Positions 14,119 to 49,834 of a stretch of 64,000 bases of DNA are shown here, piece by piece. The stretch is from the IMG/VR virus record IMGVR_UViG_3300042371_001161, positions 32,001 to 96,000 of that record, one strand, 5' to 3'. Every line of letters starts with the position of its first letter. Positions within the stretch are counted from its first letter, which is position 1. This DNA comes from a virus. A program made the translations under genes and the position numbers. A model generated the notes under the pieces. That model saw only the letters and a program-made list of their open reading frames with translations. It did no database searches and was not told where the DNA came from.

Positions 14119-14676
14119 CTATCTGTCGGAATTGGGTGGTCTTTCTATTGAAAGCACTTCTGGGGGCACAGAATTCGGAGGAGCCTCTATCGGAACCCAT
14201 GCTCTAGCGTAATTGTGTTCTTTTATTTTTCTGACTTTGAACAGATTTCCGTCAAGCATTAATGCAAGTTCTTCTGCTCGCATGCAGAGAATGTCCTGGA
14301 AATCGGATGCGCCGTACTTTCCGGAACGCCTGACGGACCTGATGATTTTAGAAGCTTTCTCCGCAATCACGTGTGAATGCCCTCGATTTAGGCGAAGGTG
14401 CATCATCATCGCGTCAACCTGGTCGACGTCATGAAAAACTACTGGAATTTTCCCCTCGGTCTTTTTTAAAATCTGCGGAATACTGGTTGCCAAAATAAAA
14501 CGCTCGGAACCATCAATTATCTCCCCGGTAGATAAGCGAGCATGTATCGGTTGAATGAATCCAAGCTCAGATAGCGATGCTGAAATTATTAACATCTCCG
14601 GACGCAGGGTGTACGTAGCTCGCCACTCAGGAGTAGATAAGCGCGATGGCTCTACGTATTCAATATTAATATTCAT
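14119..14676 (-). CDS. IbrB/YbdM-like ParB-fold protein (degenerate motif)
   Basis: Contains PEMLIISASLSELGFIQPI...IIDGSERF and MHLRLNRGHSH. Overlaps the IbrA-like gene. Confidence 0.7.
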   Translation of the reverse strand: MNINIEYVEPSRLSTPEWRATYTLRPEMLIISASLSELGFIQPIHARLSTGEIIDGSERFILATSIPQILKKTEGKIPVVFHDVDQVDAMMMHLRLNRGHSHVIAEKASKIIRSVRRSGKYGASDFQDILCMRAEELALMLDGNLFKVRKIKEHNYARAWVPIEAPPNSVPPEVLSIERPPNSDR

Positions 14677-15805
14677 ATATGTCTGCTCTCTCTAGTTCTA
14701 CTGCCCTGACAGTGTGCGCCTTTGTCTTGGGTCCAACTGGTGTTGGAGAGTTAACGTCAATGTCGTTCAGCATCAAATTTCTTATAAGCCAGCTAACTGG
14801 GTACCCGTGTGGGTCTGATAGGTGCTTTTTTCTAAACTTAGAAACATAAGCACGGGCTTCCGTTTGACGTCGTTCGCCCACCAAGTATTGTTCGATGAAA
14901 CTTGATGCACCATCAAATCCAAACTGAGAGTAGATATCAATCAGCTTCTCCGAGTCAAACTCTGGCCAAAGTCTGCGTTGTGCGTCTATGTATGGGAAGC
15001 ACTCGTAAAGCCTGTCGTAGAATTCTGGTTCCGTAGCAATAACGTCTCCAATCCGCCTTATTGCAGTCGCATGCAAGGGGATTCCAACTCGCGTGTTGCT
15101 TCCGGTGATTGTTGCGAGGTCATAGTACTTGCAGTATTCTGCGTCGTGTTCCTCGATGATGAATTTAAAAACATCATCCGTATTCCAGTCATATATGACT
15201 TTGGCGAACTTGAGTGGTATTCCCTTTTTTAACTTGTACGGCGTATTTATGTAATTCTCGTGAAGTTTCTGAACAATCGACCTGTATCTAACCATCGACT
15301 CGCTTGCTCTGACTCCAGTCAGAAAGGCAACATTTCCTTTTTTGCCCTGCATTGTGTAGTAATCGGTCTGTTCAGGCAATGAAACGCTGTGACTTAGTCC
15401 AAAATTCTTGCCGCTGATTGCCCATGGGGGCATCGGTCGCACCCACCTGCCTTGTTCAAATCTTTCTTGACTCCACAGGAGGGTCGTTATCCTGTAACCA
15501 AGAACCCAAATTTCTGCTGGATATGGCAAGCAGTACCACTCCATGTCAACCCAATCGTAGTTGCGGACCCTCTCTACGTAGTCCATGACGACAGGGCTCA
15601 CCATTTCTTCGTCGCGGAAAATCACCTTAACAGGGCCTAGGCCACGCTCTTCGTGGACCTCCTTGGCAAGGAGAAGAACGGCGGTTGAGTCTTTGCCGCC
15701 AGAAAATTGAACACACACCGTGTCAAAGGTGTCGTATACGTGACGTATTCTTTGACGAGCAGCGTCAACGCAGCTCATATCCAAGAACAGGCGTTGACGA
15801 GTCAT
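14666..15805 (-). CDS. IbrA/YbdN-like PAPS-reductase-family PP-loop protein
   Basis: Contains VQFSGGKDS, VIFRDEE, WYCLP, WVRPMP, LTGVRASES and IYDWNTDDV motifs. Confidence 0.8.
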   Translation of the reverse strand: MTRQRLFLDMSCVDAARQRIRHVYDTFDTVCVQFSGGKDSTAVLLLAKEVHEERGLGPVKVIFRDEEMVSPVVMDYVERVRNYDWVDMEWYCLPYPAEIWVLGYRITTLLWSQERFEQGRWVRPMPPWAISGKNFGLSHSVSLPEQTDYYTMQGKKGNVAFLTGVRASESMVRYRSIVQKLHENYINTPYKLKKGIPLKFAKVIYDWNTDDVFKFIIEEHDAEYCKYYDLATITGSNTRVGIPLHATAIRRIGDVIATEPEFYDRLYECFPYIDAQRRLWPEFDSEKLIDIYSQFGFDGASSFIEQYLVGERRQTEARAYVSKFRKKHLSDPHGYPVSWLIRNLMLNDIDVNSPTPVGPKTKAHTVRAVELERADIYEY

Positions 15806-20812: not shown

Positions 20813-22126
20813 TTAGAGGAGTATAGAAGCTTTCCTGCGTCTAGGCAACCCCAAGCCGGTAAGAAAAGTAAAAGCCCCAACAGCGGAGTCTACTTGGTCG
20901 TCGTGATTAGCGGACTCGGGGAAAGATGAAAATTCATCAAGGAAATCTGTGAGCCATGGAGCCCTAACTAGGCGAACATTCCCGTTTGCAGCAGATGCAG
21001 CGAATGGACGCGCTCTCGTGACCTTGTCTCCGGTTGGCCTCATAGCTCCAAAATCGTACCCAGGAACCACATATCTGGCGTACTGGTCAACTAGCGCCTT
21101 GCCAGATGAACCAGGCTCCTGCTCCATCCTGACGGCCACTCCGTATCCGTCCTCTGCCGCCGTCTGGGCAATTAGTTGTTCTACTTTCTCGCCCCTTACT
21201 CGTGCTTTTTTGATGTCAAGAATGTACGAAACGCCACCGTCGAACATCATGAGGGTTCCGACTGTCCAGTCAGGGTCAGGGTATGACGCGGTGGGCTCGG
21301 ATGCTGCAAGGTCCCAGAATCTAACGACTCTGGCAGAATTGGTTATGACGGGGATTTCGCTGGGGTCAATAATTATGAAAGATTCGCGGTCAAAAAGGCT
21401 ACCGAGGGTCGTCGACCACCAGTCGCCTTCTTCTAGACGTCGCCGTTCAACGGGGTCTAGGGCAGACAGGGCCTGCCTATATGAATCTGCATCAATTCCT
21501 GGGTTGTCTTTAAGCGTGGATGGAACAAAGACCCGTCCAGTCTCTCTGCCCTCTACGATGAACCGCTGACGAACCCAATTCGGAGCAGGGTTGGATGCCG
21601 CCCTCATCCGAAGCGGAATCTGCGCCAAAGGACCACTTGCGGGACGACGCAGACGAGAGAAAAGGTATCTATAGTCGGATTCTCGGATTTCTGTAACTTC
21701 GTCCATCCCTATGAACTGAAACTCAGAACCTTTGTATCTCAGATAGTCGTTAACGTTATTTAGGTAGCCGAATGAAATGCGAGCCCCAGATGGGAAGGTG
21801 GCCACGAAACTATTGTTATTCCAGTGAACATCGTCATAGTTACTCATCCACGATTTAAAGCGGTCCATCAAGGCACCTGGCAGAGAGAGGTCGGCAAATG
21901 TTCTACGGAAGAGGATTGCTGAATAGCCAGGGACATCCACATACTGTAGGGCGGCCATCAAAAGGGCTGAGGACTTGCCTCCACCAGCCGCCCCACCAAA
22001 GAGACCTTCAAGGCAGTTTGTCCTCAAAAAAACTTTTTGATTCAAAGATGGCTCTTCTGGGCAAAAAGGAGGCAGCTTGGGGCTCAGATACTCTAGAACT
22101 TCTTCCCAGTTAGATTTTGATGCCAT
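20813..22126 (-). CDS. terL: Terminase large subunit
   Basis: Walker A GGAAGGGKS, Walker B FIGMDEV, RAASNP, and nuclease motifs FWDLAAS, DPDWTVG and HDDQVDS. Confidence 0.95.
   Translation of the reverse strand: MASKSNWEEVLEYLSPKLPPFCPEEPSLNQKVFLRTNCLEGLFGGAAGGGKSSALLMAALQYVDVPGYSAILFRRTFADLSLPGALMDRFKSWMSNYDDVHWNNNSFVATFPSGARISFGYLNNVNDYLRYKGSEFQFIGMDEVTEIRESDYRYLFSRLRRPASGPLAQIPLRMRAASNPAPNWVRQRFIVEGRETGRVFVPSTLKDNPGIDADSYRQALSALDPVERRRLEEGDWWSTTLGSLFDRESFIIIDPSEIPVITNSARVVRFWDLAASEPTASYPDPDWTVGTLMMFDGGVSYILDIKKARVRGEKVEQLIAQTAAEDGYGVAVRMEQEPGSSGKALVDQYARYVVPGYDFGAMRPTGDKVTRARPFAASAANGNVRLVRAPWLTDFLDEFSSFPESANHDDQVDSAVGAFTFLTGLGLPRRRKASILL
20820..20848 (-). promoter_or_regulatory. SigmaA-type promoter TTGCCT-N17-TATACT inside terL 3' end
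   Basis: -35 at 20848-20843 and -10 at 20825-20820, pointing into the recombination genes. Confidence 0.55.
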
Positions 22127-22469: not shown

Positions 22470-24581
22470 ATGCGTTGGAACCCGTCTCAAAATAAAAATA
22501 TAATCCCCCCGTCCCGCAAGGACCTGGGCTATGGAGCTCCGGTATCCATAAACCCGTCCCTAGCAGGGAAAGCGTATAAGGATGGATGGGACATTGAACG
22601 CGCCTATCGCGAGGGAATGTCCAAGATTACTTGGGTCAATAGATGTATTGATGCGATTGCTGGAAATCAGGCTCGCCTTCCAATTATTCTTAGGAAAGAC
22701 AACTCTAATCAGGGGGAAATAGTTCGCGGCCGCGAGGCCAACAGGTCTACCCTCTTAGAGCTCTTGAATAATAAGGCGAATGTAGGAGAAAACTCTTTTA
22801 TTTTCCGATACAGATTGTCGGCTCAGCTGATGCTCGGTACTCGAGGGGCATTCGTAGAGAAAATTAGAGGACGGGATGGGGGAATTATTGCCCTCAACCT
22901 TCTTCCACCTCAATCAACGGCACCAATACCGGACCCCAAAAAGTTCGTATCAGGGTACGAAGTACAAATGCCCTACGGAGAAAAGCAGTTCTTAAAGCCA
23001 GAAGATGTTTGCTGGATAAGGAGACCGCACCCTCTCGACCCTTATCTGTCCCTTACGCCACTGGAAGCGGCTGGGGTTGCCATTGAGATAGAAAACCTAG
23101 CCAAAATCTACAACCGCAACTACCTGCTTAATGATGGTCGTCCTGGCGGCATTTTGGTTGTTCGTGGAGAGATGGAAGAAGACGATAAGGAGGAGCTTAG
23201 AAATAGGTTCCGCGGCAATCTGGCAAGGGCTGGTCATACAACAGTTATTGCTGCCGATGACGGTGTTGATTTCGTCGATACTTCGGCCAATCCGCGCGAT
23301 GCGGCATATGTTCAGATGCGTCAAATAACAAAAGAAGAAATTCTGTCAGCATTTGGTGTTCCTGAATCCGTCATAGGAAACGCTTCTGGAAGAACATTCA
23401 GTAATGCCGGAGAAGAAATCCGTGTTTTTTGGATGGAAACAATGCTCCCCCATCTTGAGCCAATCGCCAGAGCTCTTGATGAACTCGATGACAAGTATTA
23501 TCTAGATTTTGACACGTCAGAAGTCCCAATTCTTATGCTCTACAAGCAGGAAAGAGACAGGTACCTGTTGCAGGAGTTCCAGACTGGCTTAATTAGTGCA
23601 AACGAGTATAGAATCGGTTCTTCTCGTAAAGAAGTTGAGGCAGACCTCGCAGACTCCTTGCTCCAGAACCCCAATCTCATTCCGATTGCTAACACCAAGA
23701 AGAAAATGGAAGAAGGCCAGACTGAAGTCCCAGGTATGCCAGGAATGCCTCCGGGAATGCCAGGAATGCCGCCGGGAATGCCGGGAATGCCTCCAGGTGT
23801 GCCAGGAATGCCCCCAGGACCAGTTCCGCCGGGCGGCGAACCTGTACCGCTGGACGTCAATACGATGGCTGGGGCACTTGCGGAGTCCGCAGCCAGTGGC
23901 CAGCTTGCGCAAACAACAACCCCACCAGAGGCCTTTGGAGGCGGCGTACAGGCTCCAATGCCCCCAGGACCTATGTCCGTGGCATCGTCGCCGGATAACG
24001 AGATACAGGTAAAGTCCACGGAAGAAAAACAAGAGACCAAAGACGCAATTGACCGCAATGAACAGGCGATAGAGCGATGGACGAACATTCTAGCTCGTGG
24101 CATGGAGAGAGTTATTGAGCGCCAGCAACGAGTAGTTCTTGAAAAGGCAAGCGGGACAAAATCAAGGAAAGCCCTAATGCACGGCACGCTTGATATTGAA
24201 TCCGTATTGTCAATAGATACGTGGAACAAGCAGTTCGATGAGGATATTCGTCCTGTTGTGTCATCAATTATTAATGATTCTTTTGAATCGAGAGTTAATG
24301 ACGCATCCACAAACGGTCTCAAAATCAAAGCCTTGCCAGCAAAAGATGTTCGAGCAATGGTTGATGCACATACATTGAGAATTAAGAAAATTAACGAGTC
24401 TCATTTCAATGAAATTAACTCTTTAATGCTCAAATCTTTCGTGTATGCGGATGAAGAAAAACGGTTTAGTTTCTTTCGCGATGGTCTCGTAGAAATGTTC
24501 ACGGATTTTTTTGCGCACCAACAAGAATTACTGGCAGAGCGCGAGACAAGGTCGGCATGGAGTTTCGGCCAGACAGTTTAA
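22470..24581 (+). CDS. Portal protein (HK97 family) with Gly-Met-Pro insert and C-terminal helical extension
   Basis: Contains WVNRCIDAIA, LSPLEAA-like LSLTPLEAA, YNRNYLLNDGRPGG, AFGVPESVIG and GLISANEYR. Confidence 0.92.
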   Translation: MRWNPSQNKNIIPPSRKDLGYGAPVSINPSLAGKAYKDGWDIERAYREGMSKITWVNRCIDAIAGNQARLPIILRKDNSNQGEIVRGREANRSTLLELLNNKANVGENSFIFRYRLSAQLMLGTRGAFVEKIRGRDGGIIALNLLPPQSTAPIPDPKKFVSGYEVQMPYGEKQFLKPEDVCWIRRPHPLDPYLSLTPLEAAGVAIEIENLAKIYNRNYLLNDGRPGGILVVRGEMEEDDKEELRNRFRGNLARAGHTTVIAADDGVDFVDTSANPRDAAYVQMRQITKEEILSAFGVPESVIGNASGRTFSNAGEEIRVFWMETMLPHLEPIARALDELDDKYYLDFDTSEVPILMLYKQERDRYLLQEFQTGLISANEYRIGSSRKEVEADLADSLLQNPNLIPIANTKKKMEEGQTEVPGMPGMPPGMPGMPPGMPGMPPGVPGMPPGPVPPGGEPVPLDVNTMAGALAESAASGQLAQTTTPPEAFGGGVQAPMPPGPMSVASSPDNEIQVKSTEEKQETKDAIDRNEQAIERWTNILARGMERVIERQQRVVLEKASGTKSRKALMHGTLDIESVLSIDTWNKQFDEDIRPVVSSIINDSFESRVNDASTNGLKIKALPAKDVRAMVDAHTLRIKKINESHFNEINSLMLKSFVYADEEKRFSFFRDGLVEMFTDFFAHQQELLAERETRSAWSFGQTV
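23730..23819 (+). repeat. Imperfect 21-nt coding repeat encoding (GMPGMPP)n
   Basis: ccaggtatgccaggaatgcctccgggaatgccaggaatgccgccgggaatgccgggaatgcctccaggtgtgccaggaatgcccccagga. Confidence 0.85.
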
Positions 24582-24639
24582 AGAAATTACTATTTCAGTA
24601 AAATAAATAATATTTTCTTTAAACAAATAACTTTGGTGA

Positions 24640-24675
24640 TAGTTGCACCGGACAGACTTCTAAATCGCTTATTAT
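24640..24675 (+). promoter_or_regulatory. Conserved TAGTTGCA-N22-TATTAT promoter-like element
   Basis: Intergenic, upstream of the protease-polyprotein ATG at 24708. Confidence 0.6.
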
Positions 24676-24707
24676 TTTCAATAGACACGACGTGAAGGGT
24701 CTATCGA

Positions 24708-27700
24708 ATGCCATCAGAATTGTTTGAATATAAGTCGTCTACGCTCGGGCACTCCGACTCCATCAATTTGGATGAAGCGCAGGGAATTGTCGAATGCTTC
24801 GTGGCTGGCATCGGCAACAAGGACTCTGTGGGCGACATCGTTGCCACTGGAGCATTCACGAAGAGCCTCCAACGCCGTAAGCCGCGCGTTGTCTGGGGAC
24901 ACAGTTGGAATGACCCCATTGGCAAGGTTCTAGAGATTTACGAAGTTCCGAACACGGATAATCGCCTTCCTATGAAAATGAAGATGGCCGGAATTGGTGG
25001 CCTGTTCGCTCGAGTTCAGTTCAATCTCAATTCAGAAAAAGGTCGCGAAGCATTCGCCATGGTCGCCTTCTTTGGCGAAGAGCAGGAGTGGTCGATTGGT
25101 TACAAGACACTTCGAGCTCAGTTTGACCAGAAATCCCAAGCAAATATCATTTATGAACTTGAGTTATATGAGGTATCTCCGGTTCTGCATGGCGCAAACC
25201 AGCTAACTGGGACTATTTCCGTTAAGTCCGAAGAGTTGTCCGGTGGAATCTTGATGTCCATGATGAACGAAGAAAACCCAATTGACAAGGCAGAGATAGA
25301 AAAGCAGCTTGCTGCAATTTTGGGCGCAAAAGTATCTTTAATGGAAGTTAACGACGAAGAGATTACGTTTGCGCGAAGAATGGACAACGGAGAAGTTGGC
25401 CGCTACAAGTGTGGATTCAGCAATAATCGCGGACATTATATGTTCGGTGCGCCGCGCCCCATTGTTGTAATGCCCGTGCGTAAGCCCATTGCTCCTGTAA
25501 GCGCAATGCCAATGGCGATGCCAGGTATGCCCCCAAATGAGCCACAAAGAATTGTTCGGCCTTCTCAAATGCCATCAATCCCAGTTGCTATTAAGCCAGG
25601 CGAAAACGGCAACCAGATAGTTCCTTTGCCACCAGTGCAATACGAAAACGATAATGGAAGTCGATTTGACCCAAGTAATCTTGACCAAGAAGAAGCTGAC
25701 TTAAGAGATGCTCTTTTAAAAATCGTAAAGCGTCACGGAAAGTTTAACGAAGATTCCGAGGGAGTATGGGCAGCGTATACCCCTGCTGCACAAAATGAAG
25801 TTGCCGGAATCGGCGTCAAGTGCTCCAACTGCGTCTTTTATCAGGGTGGAAGCGCCTGCAAGATAATCGACATGGAAGTAGAACCTGAAGGTAAGTGTCG
25901 TTTTGCCGTCATCCCAAAGGGCGTTGTCAAGGGAGCCGGCTCAAAAGCATATGAACTCGACGAGGAATTCGCCGAAGAAGATTACGTCGCTGACCTCGAG
26001 GTGAAATACCCCGGGGAATTAGCAGTTGCAGGACTTCGTGGAGTGGTCGGCAAGCGGAGAAAGAAGCGTCGGAGCTTTAAGTTCTTGAGTGAATTTGGTT
26101 CCAAGAGTGAAGATTTTGAAGACAAGCCATACTTACTTCCAGTTGTACCTCAGTTCGCGTTCCAAGTAAAACAAGTTCTTGACCCAATCTTTGATTACCA
26201 TGGTGTTGATTCTTACGTCGACACAAGCGGTATCTTCATGACTTCTGGCGTTACTTACGAATTGATTGAGGCAGTCGACAACGCTGTCGCAAATTTAAAA
26301 AAAAAATCCTTAAGTGAAAACAACCTAGAGTGGAAAGCAGCCGGGTATCGCCTCGGCAGAGCTATCAGCAGTCGATTAATTGACCGCCCAAACATCGGCG
26401 GAGGTCGTTCTCGCGGTCGTTTCTTCACATCTGTGGGTGCGGAAGACTTTGACCCATTCACTGCACGCGACTCCAACCTTAACGGCATCGTAGGAGAGGG
26501 ACTGTTCCTGCGTGGAGTTCCGCTTGCCGTAAATGACCCAACACCAGATGGTCCTGGCTCTATTCGTAACCCCAAGCCATCCCCCAGGCAGGTTGCGAAG
26601 CCGAATGCTGCAGCAATTTCTCGAGCGGAAATTCAAGTAGAGAAAATAACAAAACCTAAAGAGCGCCAGAAACTTTCCTCTGGAAGCGAGCTTGTAAATC
26701 TTCCGCGAATAGACGACCCGGATGTTGATTCGGCAGAAAAATATGGCGCAGCAGAGTCGCAGCGTGACGAGCTTCAAGGCGTTTTGGATGGAGCATCAGA
26801 TTCTGACCAAATAAAGAAGTTAAAGAAGGCCATTGCGGAAATCGACAAATACATGGAACGTGTCGAGAAGATGGCCGAAGGCGAAATGGCTGATACTGAA
26901 AAGCCAAAGAAAAAGCCCGTAAAGAAGCAGGTAGAAAAGACCAGTCAGGGTCTTTCAAGCGGCTACGGCAAGTATCTAAATAAGCCCGAGGCGAAGCGGA
27001 CGCAAGACGAGCGCCGCAAATATGACGGCCCCCTGTCCTCGCTTTCATCAGGAAAGTTGGCAGACAAGGCAGAGCTTCCCGAAGGCTCCAGCCAGCTTGA
27101 AGAGTTATACAAGGAAATGGCAAAAGATATTGTCGCTATTTTGCAGGAACTCGCCAACAATCCAGACGCATCAAAAAGATGGGAATTGCCATGGCGTAAT
27201 GCCGAGAATTATGCGCGGAATCCAACTAGTGACCGCATCTACCAAGGCATGAATCAGATGATTTTGTCCCTTACGGGCTCAGCTCGCGGCTACAAAATGA
27301 ATCGATGGGCCGGAGAGGGACAGTGGAAAAAGTTAGGCGGCAAAGTAAAACCGGGAGGCAGAAACAGGGGAGTGCAGGTTCTCGTTCCTCGTGAAGGACG
27401 AAGCTTTACTGATTCAACTGGCAAGCAAGTTGAAATGGGTCGCTACTATTCTGTTCAAACGGTATACAACGTCGATGAAATTGCAGGACTCCCAGAAAGT
27501 TTCTACGAGCTTGGTGATGTAGAAATAAACCAAGAGCAACGGTTGCAGGATATAGAAAATGTCATTAAGGAAATAGGTCCTTCTTTTGTCGAATCTCTAG
27601 GCTCGCAGGCTTTTTATCGCCCCGCCACCGACAAAATTCATATGCCTGCATTTGAACAGTTCAAGGATGCTTTGGCTTTTTATGGAACTGCAATGCATGA

Positions 27701-30700
27701 GACAATCCACTGGACATCGCATCCGAGTCGACTCGACAGAAAATTGGGGAAAACGTTTGGAGACGAAGATTACGCCTTTGAAGAACTTATTGCAGAAATA
27801 GGCTCCGCGTTTGCAATGGGCGCAATGGGCCTTGAACCAACGATACAAGAAAACCATTTGCTTTACCTAAGTAGCTGGATAAAGAAACTACAAAAAGACC
27901 CGCTAGCAATTCACCGGGCCATTCTGCAGGCGCAGAAAGCAAATGACTACATAATGGACCGCTCTGCCACAATGCGCAAGCTCGCAGGTATCCCTGACGG
28001 CGAACGCAAGGGCAAGGACTCGGGCTGGTTTGAAATACCAATGATTGCTGGATATCCGGGTGGAGAAAAAATAAAGTCACCAACAACAATCACGGGACCA
28101 ATGGAAGACCTGCTTGACATGGAGCAGTACGACGAACTTGTTCCGGATGCTCGAAATCTAAGTATCGAAGAGCGCGAAATGCGCTCCTTCCAGATTCATC
28201 CAAATGCTATACGCAGGAACAAAGACGGCGTAGTAATTACGCCATCTGGAGCTTTGGCAAGCGGCAAAAAGGCTGGCCCAATCAAGAGCAGGAAGGGCGC
28301 TCCCGACGTAGAGCGCACCGATGAAGATATTTCCATGAAGTTTGCGTTCGGCTTAAGTAATGAGCCAACAAACGAGCAGCGAGACATTATGGATGTTGTT
28401 ATGCGTCTTGTTCGTGAGAAAAACCCACAAATCATGTCTATTCTTGCTGGTGCAGGAACAGGAAAAACTACAACCCTGAAGAGTATTGCATGGGCGTTGG
28501 CTCGTGAATTCAACCTATGGCCAGAAGGCGACGAGCGTCGCAAAGAACAACTCAAGTATTTAGCAGATAGATATAAGATTGATTTTAGCAAGATGTCTTC
28601 AGAAGAAATTGCGTTAGCAGTAGCAAAACTTGCAAAAGACAACCCCATGGGCAATATGTATTACACGGTTTTTAACACAAAAAACCAGCATGAAGCCGAG
28701 AAAGAATTCCCTAAAAATACGGGTATAGCCACGACCGACAAGCTTTTTCTTTGGTCTCTAATGCTAGGTGGTGGCGACAAAAGATTTGGTCCTGCGTTCC
28801 GTAGAAAAATGGCAGTCCAGAAACTTAAAGCAGATAACTCAGCCGCCGGAAGCGGTAAAGATAATCCAAAATTTATAAGTAAAGAAAAAACTCCAGATGA
28901 ACCAAGGAGAATTGGTTCCGATTTTGTTCGCGAACATTTTGATGGCACGATTGAAACATTTGTAGGAGAGGAGCCTGGTTACAGGACCCTTGGTTGGCAG
29001 AGACTTGATGATGCCGTGGACTGGATTAAATTCCTTGGGATAGACAAATGGCCCGACCAGCAAACCAGAAGAAGAGACCGAGTACAGAAGGACTCCAAGG
29101 GCAGAACAGTCCGTGACGCCAACGGCAAAGAAGTTCGTGAACAATACGACGAGTCAATATTTATTCTCCCTGATGGAAGAGGAACAACACAAGTAACCAC
29201 TGAAGAAATGGCCGATATTCTCAGTAACGCTCTCGGAAGATGGGAAATATCAAAAGAAGAAAAAGCAGCAGCATGGATGTTTACGCCGTCGGCATATCGT
29301 GCAGAGGGCCGCACCACCCCTAAAGGCCAGGGAAAAGACATTCATGTCGTGGACACGGTCCTCACAGAGGACCAAGTACCCAAATTGTGGGTTGAGGCCC
29401 TCCAGCAAGCGATAGATGCAATGATGGACGGCAACAGCAACATGATTCCGCGAAGGGACTCTGTTCAAAAACTATGGCTACTTTCGAATCCGGACTTAAG
29501 AACCGACCCTGGCCTCATAACGCATTCTGAAAATCAAACAAGAAACAAAGTGCCGATACCGAATACATACAAAGTTGGAGACAAGTATGTTGACGAGAAC
29601 GGTGAAGAATGGATTGTGGCGGGAACCTCGCGAGATGGTTCAAGTAGCAAAGTAAAAGCAAGACTTGCCAAGCGGGTTGCCACTGTCGAGAATCCACTCA
29701 GCGCGTTCATGGTAGACGAGTCTCAAGACTCTAATGAAATTTTGGAAACCGTATTAGAAAACAATAGAAAAAATCTTCCAATAATTTTAGTGGGTGATGA
29801 TAGACAGGCTGTTTATGCTTTCCGCGATGCGAAGAACATACTTGATTCCCTTGATGCTGAATATTCGCTATCAATAACCGAATCATTTAGGTATGGACCA
29901 GTCGTCGCTCACTTAACCAACATGGCACTTGGTCGACAGAACCTCTACCTGAGAGGACAGGAAGTTCCGCAGTCAATGGACTGGAAGCATGTGAAGGGTC
30001 AGGCACAAGAGGTCATAAACATGTTGTTTGACCCAGTGCTTGCAAAAAAAGACAGAAAAGGCGCAAATCAAGTTCCAGAAATCAACGACAAAACACGCGC
30101 CCTGATTATCGACGATATTGAAAAAAGATTTTCAACACCAGATAAAAAAATTGAGATATCTGACAAGACCAGAGTTGCTCAGGATGCAATTCTAAAACAA
30201 CTACGCGACGAGCTCTACGATGAAAGAGAAGGAAAAATAGTCGACTTTGTTGAACTCGCCAATCAAGGCATCTTCCCAGACGCCATTTTAACAGGGACTA
30301 ATGCGGAAATTATAGACTGGGCCCTCAAGTTCATTGACCTAGTCATCAATAGGCCGAACGCCGAAAAAGACGAAAATGGATTCCCAAAAATACCAGAAGT
30401 AGTTATTCCAGCCAAAAAACATGAAGATTTGTTGGCATTTACTATTCAACTTGACTACATCATGAAAAGTCCAGAACAGCAAGCGGCATACGAAAAAATA
30501 TTTGGGGGACGTCCCCCTGAATCCCAGTGGCTTGGGCCAGTCTGGACACAGGGAAGACTTCAACAATTACTTAAACAATCCAGGTCCCAACAGCTAACCA
30601 CCGCATACAGACTCATAACGACAGCCCCACCAGGACAAGCGCCTCTTGGAACTCGCGGAATGCTCACCCTTCTTCGGGGTGAAAATATTGTTGAAGAAGT

Positions 30701-33371
30701 AAACGGCAAACAAAAAATTCGCACCGTTCCTGCGGTGCTATTGCCAGAAAGAAAAACTCAACAACTAAACAATTTTACTGGCGATGACTCAGACCCATCA
30801 AAAGGTGTCAGGGCAGTAGTTATGGGAATATCTCGCGGCACCAAAGCGGCAGAAGCAGAACAGGCGAGTGATAGTCAGCGTAAAAAAATAATTATAATTC
30901 CTCAACCAACTGGAGCCACCGATGGAAGGTCGGCTGTTTATGCACAGCTCGAAATTAATGGTGGTAGCAGTACGAAACCAGGAAAGCCAACCGGCAAAAT
31001 AATCATTACTGGAGATGGCGTTGATAGTAATCGGCCAAAAATCAACGATGATGGTTCTGAGTCAAGAAACAAGGCACCCAATCAAAGGGTTGGTAACGGT
31101 AGATTCAGAAGGAATCTCGAGAAAATAATTCAAAGATATGGACTTCAAGACAAGGTTAAGCCCAAAGAAGAGGCAGAGGGGGCCATGAAGGGAGGTTCTA
31201 AGCGTCGCCTGTATGACGGTTGGGTGATTGAAGGAGAAACTCTACAAGAAAGTTCGGACATATTGGAACTTCTCGGTCAGGCTCTTCGTGACGAAGCAAA
31301 GGAAGTTGGCGGAGATGTTCAAATAACCACGATGGCACTGAGCAAGGGGCGGGAATTCGACTATCTCGTTATGGCGGACGACATTGACGACCCTGATGAC
31401 TTATTGCCTCAAAGTACACCGAAGGGTGAGGCTTCCATAGGATGGATGCAGGCAACGAATCTCATACATGTAGGCCTTTCACGTGCTAAAAAAATGATAG
31501 ACCCAGGAGCAAAGACCTTTGCCTTTTATTTGCACGACCAGAAAACGAAGCCAGTTCGCGAAGCGATGGCTCAAGCCGTAAAAGATGGACACATCCCAGA
31601 AGGGCTCGACAGAGGAGCATTTGGCGATGAGGGCGGAATACCGCTGCCGGACTTCTATCAAAAACTAAACGCCATGCGCGTCGAAGATATCAATTTCGAC
31701 AACCTCCCTGCAAGGGGCGGCGCAAAACCAGACCCATCGACAGGCCTGTCAAGTGGAGCGGGTAGTGGCCCCAAAAATACACCAACTCGTCGCGACGGCA
31801 GACTCAATAGAAGAGGGTCGTCAGGCGGCAGTAGAATTTACGATGGCAGCGGAAGCGCACAAGAAATTGCTGGCATTCGCTTTAGGGGTGACTTAAAGTC
31901 GCCAAAAGAGCAAGCCAAGTTGAATTTCTCAATGAACGTGTGGAAGCGTTTCCGTGACGTCGGAATAGCAATAGATGTGGACGACGATGCATCAGAAACC
32001 GAAGCACGCAAATCTAAAAACGCTGCAACAATAAAGTCAGTTGGTGCAGAGATGAAGAAGCGCCAAAACCTCGTTCGTGTCGGCAGAGTGGGCGACAATA
32101 ACGTGAATGACGCTCCCTCGGCGCTGACATGGATGCTGTCCGTGGACAAACTTGCTGAAACTCTAAGAGTTCCGACCGAATTTGTTTCCGCCAATAGGGA
32201 CGGGAAGAGTTCGCTACAGTGGACTCAGACCCGCCCGGTTACACGCAAAGAGCTTGCAACACTTCTTGGCTTGAATGGTCCAGATACGGCAGCCCTGGAA
32301 GCGCCGGACGCCGGCATCAACCATGATGCTGTCAGACTGCTTATTGCCGAACTCGGCAAGCAACCAGAGCTGAGCGCATGGCGATACTTTTCCCCAGTTA
32401 GCGCCGAAGAAGTAGCAAAGATTATCCCGCCATCACCCAGTGGTGATGTTGAAGGATTCTCAAAGATAGACCTTGCTTTGGAAAATGTTGGTCGCGCAAA
32501 CATGCGTGACAGGTTCATAATCGAGACCTTCGGCAAGGACGCGTTCCCTCATTGGTTCGACCCGGAAGAGGGCGAGTCCATAACGCCAGACGAATACAGC
32601 AAGCTTGGCGAAATTAGCGCAGTGTCTAAATTCCGCGCAACTGGTCGCTTTGACCCAGAGGACCCGACCAAGGGCGACTCAGAGGCAGAATACGACCTCT
32701 ACGGAGAGCTTATTGATGGCGTTCTGCCTAGTGCGGAACCAGATGGTGAGATAATTAGTGGAGACAAAACAAGCAGAGAAGATTTTGAATTAGAGCAGCT
32801 TCTGAAATATCTAGGAATCGATAGACAAGAATGGAAGACGACCCTTAAAGAACGAATGTCTGCTGCTTTCGGAATGGATGCCGTCGGAGCATGGGACGAA
32901 TGGAAGAAAGACGGAATACCAACGGCCACGGTCGCTCACATGATTAGAACTGGGTTAATACCTAACGCCGCTTCAGTCTGGAAAGACGCGTCCACGGGCG
33001 AAAGATTTGACAACGAACTGAAGAAATCAAAATACGCCGTGTATGAAGCATTAAACGAATTTATTGACAAGAGTTTTCCTGATAGCAAGCTCAATAGCCA
33101 AGCCAGTCGAAACAAGATAACTGGAAGAACTGACATGGGTGTTGCGTTAAGAGATGCTGCGACGGCAAAAGGCTCGGCATGGTCTCCGAAAAAAGGAAAC
33201 GAAGCAAGATTCTCTGACTCAGAATTGCAATCAATAGTTGACAGATTTAATGAAGTGTTCGGAACCAATCACACCATCGATGACATATTTAGCGCCGAAC
33301 AACTGAGAACTGCCGCAGAAAGAATTGAGTCTGGTGAAACCTTGTCTGGCAAAAAGAGAAAAGTAAGTTAG
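24708..33371 (+). CDS. Giant fusion: HK97-type prohead protease (S78) + HiPIP-like Cys motif + ArdC-N/MPTase zincin + SF1 (UvrD-like) helicase + unknown C-terminal domain
   Basis: Protease: GNKDSVGDIV...VVWGHSWNDPIGK...EWSIGY...LYEVSPVLHGAN. ArdC: WELPW..RNPTSDRIYQGMNQ..YYSVQTVYNVDEI. Zincin: QAFYRPATDKIHMP..HETIHWT..YAFEELIAEIGSAF. Helicase motifs: AGAGTGKTT, VDESQD, VGDDRQAVYAFR, TESFRYGP, SKGREFD, HVGLSRAKK. Confidence 0.88.
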   Translation: MPSELFEYKSSTLGHSDSINLDEAQGIVECFVAGIGNKDSVGDIVATGAFTKSLQRRKPRVVWGHSWNDPIGKVLEIYEVPNTDNRLPMKMKMAGIGGLFARVQFNLNSEKGREAFAMVAFFGEEQEWSIGYKTLRAQFDQKSQANIIYELELYEVSPVLHGANQLTGTISVKSEELSGGILMSMMNEENPIDKAEIEKQLAAILGAKVSLMEVNDEEITFARRMDNGEVGRYKCGFSNNRGHYMFGAPRPIVVMPVRKPIAPVSAMPMAMPGMPPNEPQRIVRPSQMPSIPVAIKPGENGNQIVPLPPVQYENDNGSRFDPSNLDQEEADLRDALLKIVKRHGKFNEDSEGVWAAYTPAAQNEVAGIGVKCSNCVFYQGGSACKIIDMEVEPEGKCRFAVIPKGVVKGAGSKAYELDEEFAEEDYVADLEVKYPGELAVAGLRGVVGKRRKKRRSFKFLSEFGSKSEDFEDKPYLLPVVPQFAFQVKQVLDPIFDYHGVDSYVDTSGIFMTSGVTYELIEAVDNAVANLKKKSLSENNLEWKAAGYRLGRAISSRLIDRPNIGGGRSRGRFFTSVGAEDFDPFTARDSNLNGIVGEGLFLRGVPLAVNDPTPDGPGSIRNPKPSPRQVAKPNAAAISRAEIQVEKITKPKERQKLSSGSELVNLPRIDDPDVDSAEKYGAAESQRDELQGVLDGASDSDQIKKLKKAIAEIDKYMERVEKMAEGEMADTEKPKKKPVKKQVEKTSQGLSSGYGKYLNKPEAKRTQDERRKYDGPLSSLSSGKLADKAELPEGSSQLEELYKEMAKDIVAILQELANNPDASKRWELPWRNAENYARNPTSDRIYQGMNQMILSLTGSARGYKMNRWAGEGQWKKLGGKVKPGGRNRGVQVLVPREGRSFTDSTGKQVEMGRYYSVQTVYNVDEIAGLPESFYELGDVEINQEQRLQDIENVIKEIGPSFVESLGSQAFYRPATDKIHMPAFEQFKDALAFYGTAMHETIHWTSHPSRLDRKLGKTFGDEDYAFEELIAEIGSAFAMGAMGLEPTIQENHLLYLSSWIKKLQKDPLAIHRAILQAQKANDYIMDRSATMRKLAGIPDGERKGKDSGWFEIPMIAGYPGGEKIKSPTTITGPMEDLLDMEQYDELVPDARNLSIEEREMRSFQIHPNAIRRNKDGVVITPSGALASGKKAGPIKSRKGAPDVERTDEDISMKFAFGLSNEPTNEQRDIMDVVMRLVREKNPQIMSILAGAGTGKTTTLKSIAWALAREFNLWPEGDERRKEQLKYLADRYKIDFSKMSSEEIALAVAKLAKDNPMGNMYYTVFNTKNQHEAEKEFPKNTGIATTDKLFLWSLMLGGGDKRFGPAFRRKMAVQKLKADNSAAGSGKDNPKFISKEKTPDEPRRIGSDFVREHFDGTIETFVGEEPGYRTLGWQRLDDAVDWIKFLGIDKWPDQQTRRRDRVQKDSKGRTVRDANGKEVREQYDESIFILPDGRGTTQVTTEEMADILSNALGRWEISKEEKAAAWMFTPSAYRAEGRTTPKGQGKDIHVVDTVLTEDQVPKLWVEALQQAIDAMMDGNSNMIPRRDSVQKLWLLSNPDLRTDPGLITHSENQTRNKVPIPNTYKVGDKYVDENGEEWIVAGTSRDGSSSKVKARLAKRVATVENPLSAFMVDESQDSNEILETVLENNRKNLPIILVGDDRQAVYAFRDAKNILDSLDAEYSLSITESFRYGPVVAHLTNMALGRQNLYLRGQEVPQSMDWKHVKGQAQEVINMLFDPVLAKKDRKGANQVPEINDKTRALIIDDIEKRFSTPDKKIEISDKTRVAQDAILKQLRDELYDEREGKIVDFVELANQGIFPDAILTGTNAEIIDWALKFIDLVINRPNAEKDENGFPKIPEVVIPAKKHEDLLAFTIQLDYIMKSPEQQAAYEKIFGGRPPESQWLGPVWTQGRLQQLLKQSRSQQLTTAYRLITTAPPGQAPLGTRGMLTLLRGENIVEEVNGKQKIRTVPAVLLPERKTQQLNNFTGDDSDPSKGVRAVVMGISRGTKAAEAEQASDSQRKKIIIIPQPTGATDGRSAVYAQLEINGGSSTKPGKPTGKIIITGDGVDSNRPKINDDGSESRNKAPNQRVGNGRFRRNLEKIIQRYGLQDKVKPKEEAEGAMKGGSKRRLYDGWVIEGETLQESSDILELLGQALRDEAKEVGGDVQITTMALSKGREFDYLVMADDIDDPDDLLPQSTPKGEASIGWMQATNLIHVGLSRAKKMIDPGAKTFAFYLHDQKTKPVREAMAQAVKDGHIPEGLDRGAFGDEGGIPLPDFYQKLNAMRVEDINFDNLPARGGAKPDPSTGLSSGAGSGPKNTPTRRDGRLNRRGSSGGSRIYDGSGSAQEIAGIRFRGDLKSPKEQAKLNFSMNVWKRFRDVGIAIDVDDDASETEARKSKNAATIKSVGAEMKKRQNLVRVGRVGDNNVNDAPSALTWMLSVDKLAETLRVPTEFVSANRDGKSSLQWTQTRPVTRKELATLLGLNGPDTAALEAPDAGINHDAVRLLIAELGKQPELSAWRYFSPVSAEEVAKIIPPSPSGDVEGFSKIDLALENVGRANMRDRFIIETFGKDAFPHWFDPEEGESITPDEYSKLGEISAVSKFRATGRFDPEDPTKGDSEAEYDLYGELIDGVLPSAEPDGEIISGDKTSREDFELEQLLKYLGIDRQEWKTTLKERMSAAFGMDAVGAWDEWKKDGIPTATVAHMIRTGLIPNAASVWKDASTGERFDNELKKSKYAVYEALNEFIDKSFPDSKLNSQASRNKITGRTDMGVALRDAATAKGSAWSPKKGNEARFSDSELQSIVDRFNEVFGTNHTIDDIFSAEQLRTAAERIESGETLSGKKRKVS
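26294..26306 (+). repeat. TTT-A10 homopolymer / in-phase slippery sequence
   Basis: AAT TTA AAA AAA AAA TCC. This is the longest homopolymer I noticed in the window. Confidence 0.8.
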
Positions 33372-33501: not shown

Positions 33502-35244
33502 ATGAAATACGACGAAAAAGTTACGCTAAGCATTGACGGTGGCGGCAATGTTCTTAAGTGCGCAAAAGGCGCTGTCGCAGATTGCGGCTTCGTCAAGGGC
33601 GCAGAACTATGTGCCAAGTGCGGAGCTATGCCCGTAGAAATGAAGATGGTGCCCGCTGTTGCTGAACCAGAAGCAGACGAGGAGATGGATGAGGAAGAGT
33701 TGTTGAATCCCACCTCTGCTTCCGTCAAGAAAAAAGGCAATAATAAAAAGCCTGGACATGCACTTCTTGAGATGGCCGACGAAGGTGACGAACCAGACAT
33801 GACGGAGGAAGAAATGGCCGCCGTTATGCCGAAGAAGAAGGGCATGGTCGCGCCCATGGAGCTCGAGGAAGAAGAAGTCGAAGAAGACGAAAAGATGATG
33901 CATGCAATGCCTAAGAAGAAAAAAGGCATGGGCATGGCCGTCCCAGCAATGGATGACGAAGAAGACGTCATGGAAGAAGACGAAGAAGACGAAGAAGACG
34001 AAGAATACAAGCAGATGATGCGAATGCGTCGCGCCGGCCGAAAGAACATGGAAGGCGCTATGCCAGTCATGGATGGCGAAGAAGACGACGAGGAGCTCGA
34101 GGAAGAAGAAGTCGAAGAAGAGCTCGAAGAGGACGAAGAAGTAAAGATGAATGGTCGTCGACACGTCAAGGGTCGCCGAAAGGGCATGGAAGGCGCCATG
34201 CCAGATATGGATGCCGAAGAAGAAGACGAAGAGCTCGAAGAAGACGAAGATGAAGAAGAGGAAGATGAAGAGTACGCAGAAATGGGTGCCAAGTCTTTCT
34301 CCCCGCTTCATACTGAGTGGGAAGAGATTCGTCGCGCTCGTATTGGGTCCATGGGACTGAAGGTCGCTGATATTGGTGCGACAGGCTATGTGTGCGCTAT
34401 TGAGCGCAAGGCCTATGGTGGCTCTTCGCCAGTTTGCGATGACTGCCCAGGAGGTTGCGTTGCCGAAAAAGGCATGCCAGGGATTCTTCATGTTGAAGGT
34501 CTCGCTGAGAAAATGTTTGATGGCGTAGTCGTTGATTCTGGTTATTCGCCAGATGCCGATATGTTCGTTGTGGATGTACAGGTAAAAGATGGTTCCGTAA
34601 ACGAAGTTTTTGTCGATGGTACCTCTGCGGAAATTCTTGGTTTCCACAAACTTGACATGACGGAATTCGATAAGAAATCAGACATCGGTAGTTTCAGACT
34701 AATTGACTTTACGGAAGCTGCTGAAATTGCTGTCAAATCAATTGATGGAACAGTAGTAGCGATTGAGCCCGATATATTTGAGGGCTTTGATTCGTATGCC
34801 GTTGAAATAGAAGGCTTTGATGGCAAGTCATATGACGTATTCGTGGCATTGGATGGAGAAGTCCTCGGCTACGACAAGTATGAATCCGACGAGATTGAAG
34901 GAATTGAAGCCGAAGCGGCAGAAATTGCGATGAAAAATGCGTTCTCGGAAGAGAGGCGCATGGACTTGGCAAAAGATGGCATGGCCATGGAAGACGGGTC
35001 TTACCCAATTGTCTCTGAAGGCGATTTGCGTAATGCAATTCAAGCATTTGGTCGAGCAAAAGACAAAGAGGCAACCAAGAAGCACATTATGAAACGTGCT
35101 CGCGCCCTCAAGTTAGAGAGCTTGATTCCAGCAAACTGGATAGCCGGTGGAGAAGAAAAAAGCAGCAGTAATTTAAGTGACGCAGAATTCATGGCGTCTC
35201 TTGTCGAGTTTCAGCTGCTCGAAGACTCCGTAGACGACAACTAA
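33502..35244 (+). CDS. Acidic scaffold-like protein with Cys clusters, two PepSY-like domains and C-terminal DUF6582-like domain
   Basis: Glu/Asp/Met-rich repeats. AAEIAVKSIDGTVVAIEPD...YAVEIEGFDGKSYDVFVALDGEVL is PepSY-like. MEDGSYPIVSEGDLRNAIQAFGRAKD...HIMKRARAL..IPANW is DUF6582-like (from memory of the family). Confidence 0.7.
   Translation: MKYDEKVTLSIDGGGNVLKCAKGAVADCGFVKGAELCAKCGAMPVEMKMVPAVAEPEADEEMDEEELLNPTSASVKKKGNNKKPGHALLEMADEGDEPDMTEEEMAAVMPKKKGMVAPMELEEEEVEEDEKMMHAMPKKKKGMGMAVPAMDDEEDVMEEDEEDEEDEEYKQMMRMRRAGRKNMEGAMPVMDGEEDDEELEEEEVEEELEEDEEVKMNGRRHVKGRRKGMEGAMPDMDAEEEDEELEEDEDEEEEDEEYAEMGAKSFSPLHTEWEEIRRARIGSMGLKVADIGATGYVCAIERKAYGGSSPVCDDCPGGCVAEKGMPGILHVEGLAEKMFDGVVVDSGYSPDADMFVVDVQVKDGSVNEVFVDGTSAEILGFHKLDMTEFDKKSDIGSFRLIDFTEAAEIAVKSIDGTVVAIEPDIFEGFDSYAVEIEGFDGKSYDVFVALDGEVLGYDKYESDEIEGIEAEAAEIAMKNAFSEERRMDLAKDGMAMEDGSYPIVSEGDLRNAIQAFGRAKDKEATKKHIMKRARALKLESLIPANWIAGGEEKSSSNLSDAEFMASLVEFQLLEDSVDDN
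33780..34275 (+). repeat. Degenerate coding repeats: (M/A)MPKKKGM / MEGAMPxMD followed by poly-Glu/Asp
   Basis: Repeated gagctcgaggaagaagaagtcgaagaag and ggcatggaaggcgc(c/t)atgcca units. Confidence 0.8.
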
Positions 35245-48484: not shown

Positions 48485-49834
48485 ATGTCGCAAGACAATT
48501 CCCGTACCGAGGAGCTTCAATCAGCCCTCCGTCAGAAGATGGCAGACAACAAGACCATCGCTGACTCATTCAAGGTAGAAGACGGCACAGTAGTCGTCAC
48601 TACGGAACAGAAGACCGCGTTCGACAAGAACATGCGAGACATCAAGGAAATCAAGTCGCTTCTTAGTGACCTTGATACCATGAAGTCAGTCGACCAGTGG
48701 GGCTCACAGCCTGCAGGCGAATCAGCCGCAGCAATGTACGCTGCCGCTGCCGCAGACCTCAGTCACTTGTCTTCACGTGAAATCAAGAGCATCGGTCAGC
48801 TATTTCTTGATTCTCCGGAATTCAAGGCACTCAATGGTGGTCGCAATGGCGCAAACATGGTTGCCCCATGGACCGTCGCTGCTTCACTGACGACCCAAGG
48901 AATGTACAACGTCAAGGATGTCTTCTCGGCAACCCCGACCGGCACCCCTGGTTCGTTTGGAACGATTCAGCGTGACCCGATGGTGACCCCGCCGACCCGC
49001 ACAAAGCGCGTTCGCGACTTGTTCCCGGCCCGTAAGACCAATGCTGCTGTTATCGAATACTTCCGTCAGTTGGGTTTCACGACCCTACAGACGGGCCATG
49101 GTACGAACAGCGCCTCATCGGTTGCTGAGCGAAATAGCGGCAACACCGCCTTTGGCCTCAAGCCACAGTCGTCGTTCGCCTTCGTTGGTGAGCAAGCCCC
49201 AATTCGCACACTCGCACACTGGGAAGCTGCACACCGCAACGTTCTGTCGGACGAGCCGCAATTGCGTTCAATCATCGACAACGAACTCATGTACGGTCTC
49301 CGTCTCCTTGAGGATAATCAAATCCTCAATGGTGATGGCGTCGGCGAGAACTTGCTTGGTGTTTTGAATACCCCCAACATCCAGCAATACGCCTGGTCAG
49401 ATGGAGAAAACTCCCCGGTCGCAGATACAAAGGCCGATGCACTTCGTCGCGCCGCAACTCTCTCGTTCCTTGCTTACTACGAGCCATCTGGCGTCGTACT
49501 GCACCCGAACGACTGGGAAGACATCGAATTGACCAAGGATGCCAATGGCCAGTACCTCATCGCAGTTTCGGTTGCAATGGGTGGCGAGCCACGCGTCTGG
49601 AGAATGCCGGTAATTGATACCCCAGCAATGACCGCTGGCAAGGCCCTTGTCGGAGCATTCGGTACAGGAGCACAGTTGTACGACCGCGAAGAGGCGAGCA
49701 TTCGTATCTCTGAGCAGCACTCGGACTTCTTCATCCGTAACGCAATCGTGATTCTCGCCGAGCAGCGTTTAGCTCTCGCAGTGAAGCGTCCCGAAGCGTT
49801 CGTTGAGGTTACCTTCGACAACGAGCCAGCCTGA
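48485..49834 (+). CDS. Major capsid protein, HK97 fold
   Basis: Helical N-terminal delta-like domain. Contains RVRDLFP, IRTLAHW, LEDNQILNGDG.GENLLGVL, VVLHPNDW...KDANGQYL, RVWRMPV, FIRNAIVILAEQRLALAVKRPEAF. Confidence 0.96.
   Translation: MSQDNSRTEELQSALRQKMADNKTIADSFKVEDGTVVVTTEQKTAFDKNMRDIKEIKSLLSDLDTMKSVDQWGSQPAGESAAAMYAAAAADLSHLSSREIKSIGQLFLDSPEFKALNGGRNGANMVAPWTVAASLTTQGMYNVKDVFSATPTGTPGSFGTIQRDPMVTPPTRTKRVRDLFPARKTNAAVIEYFRQLGFTTLQTGHGTNSASSVAERNSGNTAFGLKPQSSFAFVGEQAPIRTLAHWEAAHRNVLSDEPQLRSIIDNELMYGLRLLEDNQILNGDGVGENLLGVLNTPNIQQYAWSDGENSPVADTKADALRRAATLSFLAYYEPSGVVLHPNDWEDIELTKDANGQYLIAVSVAMGGEPRVWRMPVIDTPAMTAGKALVGAFGTGAQLYDREEASIRISEQHSDFFIRNAIVILAEQRLALAVKRPEAFVEVTFDNEPA

Follow-up and report, generated by a model that had tools for sequence, protein, structure and literature searches.

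A giant phage protein family with an N-terminal prohead protease, predicted cleavage motifs and exchangeable ArdC–helicase cargo

A giant open reading frame (ORF) of 2887 amino acids (aa), found in the DNA of an uncultured phage from lake water, joins an HK97-type prohead protease to an ArdC module, a DNA helicase and a conserved C-terminal domain. We analysed 64,000 nucleotides (nt) of this phage, positions 32,001 to 96,000 of the IMG/VR record IMGVR_UViG_3300042371_001161 (hereafter the window); the parent record comprises 119,748 bases, with a completeness that CheckV estimates at 71%. Judged against its relatives, the giant ORF is a real gene of a large and so far undescribed family in uncultured myophages. 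We consider it rather likely that the protease anchors a cargo which is loaded into the capsid, cut free and co-ejected, and that slippage at a run of adenines sets the ratio of isoforms with and without cargo. The evidence for this reading comes from the fixed N-terminal module, from the shuffling of the cargo behind it, and from a short motif, L-S-S-G, that punctuates the protein at conserved positions.

The N-terminal protease module and its cargo

The frame is open throughout and contains no internal stop. Its Peptidase_S78 domain, matched well above the Pfam cut-off (coordinates and scores of all features are in Table 1), reached 51.1 bits in the genome scan and is also recognised as a head maturation protease by PHROGs (phrog_80, E-value 4.5e-26). 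When aligned with HK97 gp4 at 30% identity, His65 (nt 24900-24902) and Ser129 (nt 25092-25094) fall opposite H65 and S114 of gp4, which we take to be the catalytic pair. Both residues, together with four cysteines (C372, C375, C384 and C397), are invariant in 20 relatives. The other prohead-protease families that were searched for in the 119.7-kb record (S77, ClpP and S49) gave no match, leaving S78 as the sole one, and its gene occupies the canonical protease slot, directly after the portal gene.

The S78 domain is the first part of an invariant N-terminal module of about 600 residues, which continues with a HiPIP-like Cys4 domain and a helical region. A profile of residues 176-650 searched against 1.84 billion representatives retrieved 540 proteins, and the Cys4 segment recurs both in hundreds of small proteins (E-values down to 1e-56) and in shorter S78 proteins of 800-1000 aa. 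Elsewhere this segment is fused to ferritin-like, thioredoxin-like, DUF5824 and S78 domains. BLAST comparisons with 120 relatives place the first 560-680 residues at the N terminus in every case, in collinear order and with 45-67% identity, and the protease motifs lie within the first 220 residues in 109 of 119 relatives; among 20 collinear relatives, residues 51-150 are 96% identical. While this module is fixed, what follows it is not. Among the 120 relatives, the order of ArdC, the helicase core and the C-terminal domain varies, as do their inserts, and identity among the collinear 20 amounts to 27-65% in the ArdC-helicase region and 60-79% in the C-terminal domain.

The first element of the cargo is an ArdC. 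In addition to the Pfam matches to its two domains and an assignment by PHROGs as an anti-restriction protein, the structure of R388 ArdC (6i89) aligns over nearly its full length, from its residue 24, with residues 821-1091 of the giant ORF (E-value ~5e-39). The HETIH motif at aa 997 and the downstream glutamate ligand (EELIAE) are both intact, and the corresponding patterns, HExxHW and E[ED]L[IV]AE, are present in 113 of 119 family proteins. At sequence level the giant ORF carries a complete ArdC, with a predicted role in anti-restriction.

The second element is a helicase, recognised in Pfam as AAA_19 (aa 1239-1264) and UvrD-helicase (aa 1659-1710) and in PHROGs as a DNA helicase. Its motifs are GAGTGKT (aa 1248, nt 28449), DESQD (aa 1670, nt 29715), GDDRQAVYAFR (aa 1696), SKGRE (aa 2212) and VGLSRA (aa 2255). 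Comparison with 11 relatives at 28-64% identity showed no change in Walker A, DExQD, motif III, SKGxE and the arginine of VGxSRA, which represent motifs I, II, III, V and VI, and the helicase is complete at the level of its motifs. Profile comparison placed it closest to FBH1 (8.5e-24), followed by UvrD, Rep and PcrA (5e-8 to 2e-6), with weaker matches to AddA, RecB and GajB and, for the region of motifs V-VI, to AdnB. The spacing between Walker A and Walker B is about 420 aa, against a motif II near residue 220 in UvrD. Because UvrD-type helicases normally carry domain 1B at this point, only about 230 aa of that spacing are extra, and the motif spacing as a whole implies that the 1B and 2B regions are each enlarged by some 200-230 aa.

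The C-terminal domain (537 aa) gave an AlphaFold 2 (AF2) model of mean predicted local distance difference test score (pLDDT) 78, for which Foldseek found no significant match in the PDB or BFVD. VIA-align returned Z scores of at most 4.5, to small helix-turn-helix-like helical bundles and below the useful level, and profile searches of PDB sequences and of the ESM Atlas were both empty.

This architecture largely follows an original prediction that was made from the letters of the window. It had proposed a single 2887-aa ORF in which an HK97-type maturation protease is followed by ArdC-N and a zincin with HETIH at nt 27696, a superfamily 1 helicase with intact motifs and a C-terminal region of unrecognised nature of about 540 residues. 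Each of these elements was borne out, S78, ArdcN, MPTase-PolyVal, AAA_19 and UvrD-helicase all being matched in Pfam and the Walker coordinates proving right to within a codon. Its description of the helicase as spread by very large insertions requires more care, since the wide gap between Walker A and B is present but is partly accounted for by normal 1B/2B accessory domains. The L-S-S-G motif and the run of adenines described below had no place in it.

Comparison between closely related loci reveals how the cargo is exchanged. Three loci (L005, L006 and L026), which belong to one phage, match the window at 96-100% identity in the terminase, the portal, residues 1-765 and residues 2347-2887; between residues ~770 and 2347 they are only 40-60% identical. 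The left breakpoint of this swap lies between residues 766 and 779 and the right one falls exactly at the L-S-S-G of residue 2347. Since the breakpoints flank the region from ArdC through the helicase, the two have been exchanged as one unit, and in this lineage ArdC is always paired with the helicase. A 1141-base contig from a 2024 sequencing run has matching flanks around nt 28532-29250 (the helicase 1B region), in place of which it carries 726 other letters; a second allele of the helicase region therefore co-exists in the same lake sample.

Such an unusual arrangement might be taken for an artefact in which unrelated genes were joined, whether a chimera created in assembly or a pseudogene in decay, and the original prediction had named a chimera as one of its hazards. 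We regard this as barely credible. The first 3 kb (24708-27708) were present at all sampled words in 21 lake-water metagenome runs from 2020 and 2024. A 30-kb contig from a 2020 run, possibly the source of the record, covers the whole ORF with zero differences, and a 10-kb contig from a 2024 run covers nt 24508-32744, with a second contig supplying the remainder, again with zero differences; identical contigs have thus been recovered from independent runs four years apart. A protein search identified 187 relatives of 2300-4700 aa, on contigs of up to 180 kb, nearly all of which combine S78, ArdcN and MPTase and most of which additionally carry the UvrD helicase. A scan of IMG/VR with residues 1-650 yielded 79 loci, and in every one of them that extends far enough the order of terL, portal, giant ORF, 580-aa protein and second giant ORF is identical. 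Among the complete ORFs at these loci, 39 of 41 are intact giants (2913-3702 aa). An architecture common to more than 180 relatives, with catalytic motifs invariant among diverged copies, argues against both chimerism and decay. Two related contigs (L041 and L046) are frameshifted near residues 535-545, as a pseudogene might be; both frameshifts, however, fall exactly within a conserved run of adenines described below. As far as sequence data allow, the artefact is already refuted.

The family is confined to uncultured material in our searches: no full-length relative was found in cultured phages, where tblastn matched the ArdC part only, and megablast of 24 kb against phage records gave zero matches. 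IMG/VR scans returned nothing new when queried with P0052, P0054 and other forms whose start lies beyond the N-terminal module; such forms may result from gene calling that picks up the frame only past a frameshift in the adenine run.

The L-S-S-G motif and the adenine run

Four copies of L-S-S-G and one of L-A-S-G occur in the giant ORF, where 0.07-0.17 are expected, and these five sites delimit the N-terminal module, the coiled-coil linker, ArdC, the helicase and the C-terminal domain. Across the genome, L-S-S-G occurs 20 times against 1.4 expected; 19 of these occurrences are in four proteins of more than 1500 aa, in which 0.37 are expected and in which it is the top over-represented 4-mer (p 4.5e-26). 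The positions of the sites are kept in 15-20 of 20 relatives, and the variable, low-complexity linkers that surround them are the least conserved parts. All 26 instances of L-[SA]-S-G are encoded by different 12-mers, drawing on both serine codon families; selection has therefore acted on the peptide, and a role of the motif as a recombination signal in DNA can be dismissed. Family proteins carry a mean of 8.1 copies, mostly in the form [KR]-L-S-S-G-[RK]. In the most distant clade, whose protease has diverged, L-S-S-G is absent altogether and DGFASRG occurs 7-24 times instead. Family members that lack the zincin still carry L-S-S-G. From this distribution, the L-S-S-G motifs are probably protease sites.

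The motif is also found in other large proteins of this phage. The probable tape measure (1619 aa; nt 2958-7817, minus strand), encoded 3' of the sheath and tube genes, has L-S-S-G at residues 36 and 576 and L-A-S-G at residue 564. A 3305-aa ORF that lies beside the primase gene and runs from nt 60519 to 64000 and beyond the window (L083) contains ten L-S-S-G as well as L-A-S-G and F-S-S-G variants; its sole recognisable domain is a DnaQ-like exonuclease (aa 2506-2697), no Pfam peptidase family was found at its end, and it may be a replication polyprotein. In HK97 (L089), residues 63-68 of gp5, within the delta domain, read K-L-A-S-G-A, a variant of the motif that could either be fortuitous or hint at the specificity of S78.

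Codons 530-533 (L-K-K-K), near the end of the N-terminal module, read TTA AAA AAA AAA and so form a run of ten adenines (A10). In 22 distinct sequence variants the run is kept at nine to eleven adenines (A9-A11), the leucine codon always ends in TA and the lysine codons are nearly all AAA. ORF-wide, lysine is encoded by AAA 118 times and by AAG 103 times, and the other K-K-K is written AAG AAA AAG. Stops occur 0-5 codons past the run in both shifted frames of every variant; from the background, a stop within 3 codons would be expected with a probability of 0.18 in one frame and 0.24 in the other. With stops so placed, slippage would end the protein at about residue 535, giving a protease without cargo. 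The two truncated contigs mentioned above have A9 at the run, and the closest relatives of L041 carry A10. By analogy with Thermus dnaX, the A10 run predicts a short, protease-only isoform of about 535 aa. The only other homopolymer of at least 10 in the record is a T10 run at the position equal to 81771, outside the window.

Capsid loading and its alternatives

The preferred reading, that of capsid loading, can be set out as a sequence of predicted steps. The protease module would be built into the prohead in the manner of HK97 gp4, carrying the cargo inside. Cleavage at the conserved L-S-S-G sites, for which S78 is the likeliest enzyme, would then separate the modules, and the freed ArdC, helicase and C-terminal domain would accompany the DNA out of the capsid, protecting or processing it as it enters the cell. 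Slippage at the A10 run would supply the short isoform and so set the ratio of plain to cargo-bearing protease. We favour capsid loading because S78 is the sole prohead-protease family and stands in the slot after the portal, because the N-terminal 600 residues or so are fixed while the cargo is shuffled and swapped, and because it matches P1 DarB (PMC9024508) and the polyvalent proteins (PMC5512222). The original prediction had likewise read the fusion as a means of loading enzymes into the capsid for co-ejection; the comparative evidence lends this support, and packaging and ejection themselves keep the status of predictions.

Several observations weigh against capsid loading. Encapsidation, cleavage and ejection are each predicted from sequence comparison, and ArdC acts on single-stranded DNA in conjugation, whereas the genome that a phage injects is double-stranded. 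The AF2 model of residues 1-760 is poor (mean pLDDT 48). Exact L-S-S-G is absent from the major capsid protein and present in the tape measure and in the 3305-aa DnaQ-like exonuclease protein; these two are not obviously capsid-internal, so that cutting may take place in the cytoplasm and by an enzyme other than S78. The A-run is missing from the DGFASRG clade and from some L-S-S-G lineages, and slippage is predicted here from DNA contigs, the RNA contigs covering only short pieces of the ORF. A bolder version of the reading would have a logic like that of Gag and Gag-Pol: short and long forms made by A10 slippage, the long form dragging L-S-S-G-delimited, swappable enzymes into the prohead, S78 freeing them for injection, and the motif serving as a genome-wide cleavage code of four giants. 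This conjunction is possible, and we hold it tentatively.

It could be argued that L-S-S-G is not a cleavage site at all, but a linker or docking motif, for example a tag for capsid targeting or chaperone binding, or a junction at which domain shuffling is favoured. The cassette breakpoints that fall at the motif and the capsid protein that lacks it would suit such a role. We nevertheless judge it rather unlikely, although deserving of serious attention: the codon strings differ in all 26 instances, the motif forms an island of conservation inside variable, low-complexity linkers, another short motif replaces it in the clade with the diverged protease, and motif-directed prohead proteases are well known (PMC10052503). 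Alternatively, cleavage may occur in the wrong place for loading. The giant ORF would then be a cytoplasmic polyprotein, a co-expression device cut at L-S-S-G in the cell by S78, the zincin or another enzyme, whose cargo acts late on replicating or packaging DNA and of which only the protease module enters proheads. This is suggested by the motif in the tape measure and in the 3305-aa replication-type protein, by the standalone ArdC genes that huge phages commonly carry (10.1101/2025.02.27.640493), and by the putative slippery run, which would already provide a cargo-free protease. Yet anti-restriction is required at entry, before phage genes are expressed; in each of the 79 loci the gene is part of the late head module, placed between those for the portal and the capsid protein; diversified and swapped cargo is typical of injected conflict proteins (PMC5512222); and P1 DarB is a 250-kDa anti-restriction protein that is packaged (PMC9024508). 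Hence we think a purely cytoplasmic polyprotein unlikely.

A further alternative accepts packaging without ejection, with the cargo forming an inner-body or scaffold-like mass or aiding packaging, for example as a helicase and single-stranded-DNA binder that organise the capsid DNA. Giant phages do contain large internal protein masses whose role is not known (PMC10052503), and the N-terminal module and its acidic 580-aa neighbour look scaffold-like. However, no structural role is known for ArdC or UvrD-like enzymes, and a swap at 40-60% identity, in phages that otherwise match, points to host-directed diversifying selection rather than to structural constraint. We consider retention of the cargo in the capsid quite improbable, and capsid loading followed by ejection is the reading that we carry forward.

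Gene neighbourhood and comparison with known systems

The giant ORF lies in a structural operon, and the gene order around it is terL, an 88-aa ORF, portal, giant ORF, a very acidic 580-aa protein and a second giant ORF, followed by five further unknown ORFs and an HK97-fold major capsid protein. This capsid protein, which has a delta-like region of about 160 aa, is the expected substrate of the protease.

Table 1 Features of the giant ORF and of the neighbouring head genes, with positions in the window
Feature	Position (nt)	Strand	Support
Giant ORF, protease-anchored polyvalent protein	24708..33371	+	open frame; contigs of 2020 and 2024 runs match; 39/41 complete relatives giant and intact
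Peptidase_S78 (HK97 gp4-type) prohead protease, aa 27-170	24786..25217	+	Pfam PF04586, 45.4 bits against cut-off 21
Cys4 domain, HiPIP-like, aa ~324-415 (C372, C375, C384, C397)	25677..25952	+	invariant Cys; weak PF01355 HIPIP in relatives
A10 homopolymer, candidate programmed slippage site, codons L530-K533	26297..26306	+	A9-A11 in 22 variants
L-S-S-G site 1, aa 656, end of N-terminal module	26673..26684	+	16/20 relatives
Lys-rich coiled-coil linker, aa 660-748	26686..26951	+	AF2 helices 675-730, pLDDT ~80
L-S-S-G site 2, aa 749	26952..26963	+	15/20 relatives
L-S-S-G site 3, aa 779, left border of swappable cassette	27042..27053	+	20/20 relatives
ArdC-N single-stranded-DNA-binding domain, aa 799-907	27102..27428	+	Pfam PF08401, 57.7 bits
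Zincin metallopeptidase MPTase-PolyVal, aa 948-1071	27549..27920	+	Pfam E-value 1.7e-39; HETIH nt 27696-27710
L-A-S-G site 4, aa 1183, between ArdC and helicase	28254..28265	+	20/20 relatives (LSSG 12, LASG 8)
UvrD/Rep-type SF1A helicase with enlarged accessory regions, aa ~1200-2330	28305..31697	+	motifs; profile to FBH1
L-S-S-G site 5, aa 2347, right border of swappable cassette	31746..31757	+	20/20 relatives; identity to L005 resumes here
Conserved C-terminal domain, aa 2351-2887, fold not recognised	31758..33368	+	60-79% identity in close relatives
Terminase large subunit	20813..22126	-	
Portal protein, immediately 5' of giant ORF	22470..24581	+	Pfam Phage_portal, E-value 1.3e-51
Major capsid protein, HK97-fold, ~160-aa N-terminal delta-like region	48485..49834	+	phrog_10; Pfam Phage_capsid aa 209-443

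The 580-aa protein (nt 33502-35244, plus strand) has a cysteine-rich N terminus, a long, repetitive middle rich in glutamate and aspartate, and a C-terminal part that is folded. Among the neighbours of the giant ORF it shows the highest conservation (67-89% identity across loci); it matches no family and is a candidate scaffold. The second giant ORF (2849 aa; nt 35258-43807, plus strand) is conserved in all related loci. No Pfam family matches it and phrog_2859 does so only weakly; L-S-S-G occurs in it three times and L-A-S-G once, and no similarity to the first giant family was found in it or its neighbours. The phage carries a tail sheath and the probable 1619-aa tape measure on the minus strand, and is therefore a myophage. 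The closest cultured relatives of its portal (44% identity) are those of actinobacterial phages, Brevibacterium Cantare and the Gordonia GMA6 group, which may point to a freshwater actinobacterium as host. Amid the structural genes lies a phosphoadenosine phosphosulfate reductase-like gene (nt 14666-15805, minus strand; phrog_2302, E-value 2e-76), and collagen-like G-x-T repeats (GATG, GPTG) are hugely enriched in other phage proteins outside the giants, presumably fibres, some of them encoded ahead of the window.

If capsid loading by a fused protease is confirmed, it would constitute a simple and general route by which large enzymes enter a capsid, namely fusion to the one enzyme that is obligatorily in the prohead, and would offer a natural model that engineered phages could copy to deliver proteins. 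If the cleavage code and slippage are confirmed, polyprotein processing and recoding would join the modes of gene expression in large DNA phages. The family also provides a comparative system for the evolution of anti-defence repertoires, with a fixed anchor, a clade-specific motif and cassettes exchanged within one lake. Furthermore, the joint exchange of ArdC and a UvrD-like helicase hints at a counter-defence mechanism that has yet to be studied.

The individual parts of the giant ORF have known counterparts. As in HK97, where gp4 has 225 aa, the catalytic histidine and serine align, the gene follows the portal and the capsid protein has a delta-like N-terminal region; the short C-terminal prohead-targeting tail of gp4 is here replaced by about 2700 aa. 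Both domains of R388 ArdC (6i89/6sna) align to the giant ORF, with HExxH and the third ligand, a glutamate, intact, but the R388 protein is a stand-alone plasmid product of 297 aa that takes a type IV secretion route, whereas here ArdC is an internal module of a protein from a phage structural operon.

For processing at a short motif, the nearest precedent, by analogy, is the prohead protease of SPN3US (PMC10052503). T4 gp21 and the SPN3US and phiKZ gp245 systems cut packaged internal or ejection proteins at short motifs, commonly several times per propeptide, which is known there and predicted here (PMC10052503). Those proteases differ in belonging to S77, their substrates are separate proteins with N-terminal propeptides, and their motif ends in glutamate rather than reading L-S-S-G. 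In Thermus thermophilus dnaX, an A9 run with nearby stops results in about 50% short product, the short form (gamma) arising by transcriptional slippage and the long one (tau) by standard decoding (PMC1088944). The giant ORF shares with it a sense-strand A run of at least 9 and stops close by in both shifted frames. Unlike that cellular replication gene, however, here the run would part a capsid protease module from its cargo through predicted slippage, a placement functionally closer to retroviral Gag versus Gag-Pol.

A further comparison is with P1 DarB, an anti-restriction protein of about 250 kDa with a helicase domain, encoded beside portal and prohead protease genes and packaged at about 40 copies per head by means of an N-terminal signal (PMC9024508). 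DarB relies on a 30-residue targeting signal and helper proteins (PMC9024508) where the giant ORF has a fused protease, and it combines a methyltransferase with a different helicase and has no ArdC. We found no homology to DarB, the matches in phage records being limited to the ArdC region.

The polyvalent proteins described by Iyer, Burroughs, Anand, de Souza and Aravind in 2017 (PMC5512222) form the wider concept into which the giant ORF fits. They too combine unrelated enzymatic domains, shuffled, in one giant polypeptide, with ArdC-N and the zincin MPTase as a hub and the gene beside portal or terminase, and their delivery with DNA and release of modules by proteolysis were predicted there. 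According to that survey, an assemblin-like peptidase is rare and always C-terminal, while here S78 is an N-terminal anchor; the giant ORF therefore represents a distinct architectural class, still within the broad polyvalent concept. UvrD-type helicases are likewise noted there in a few actinomycete plasmid proteins only, and here in phage giants. Neither a punctuating motif nor a slippery run was met in the sections of that survey that were covered or in our other literature searches, and the latter brought up no publication that describes L-S-S-G as a cleavage site of a phage protease or a fusion of N-terminal S78 to ArdC. Taken together, these comparisons suggest that what is new relative to the known polyvalent proteins is the N-terminal protease anchor, along with a predicted cleavage code and a predicted recoding site.

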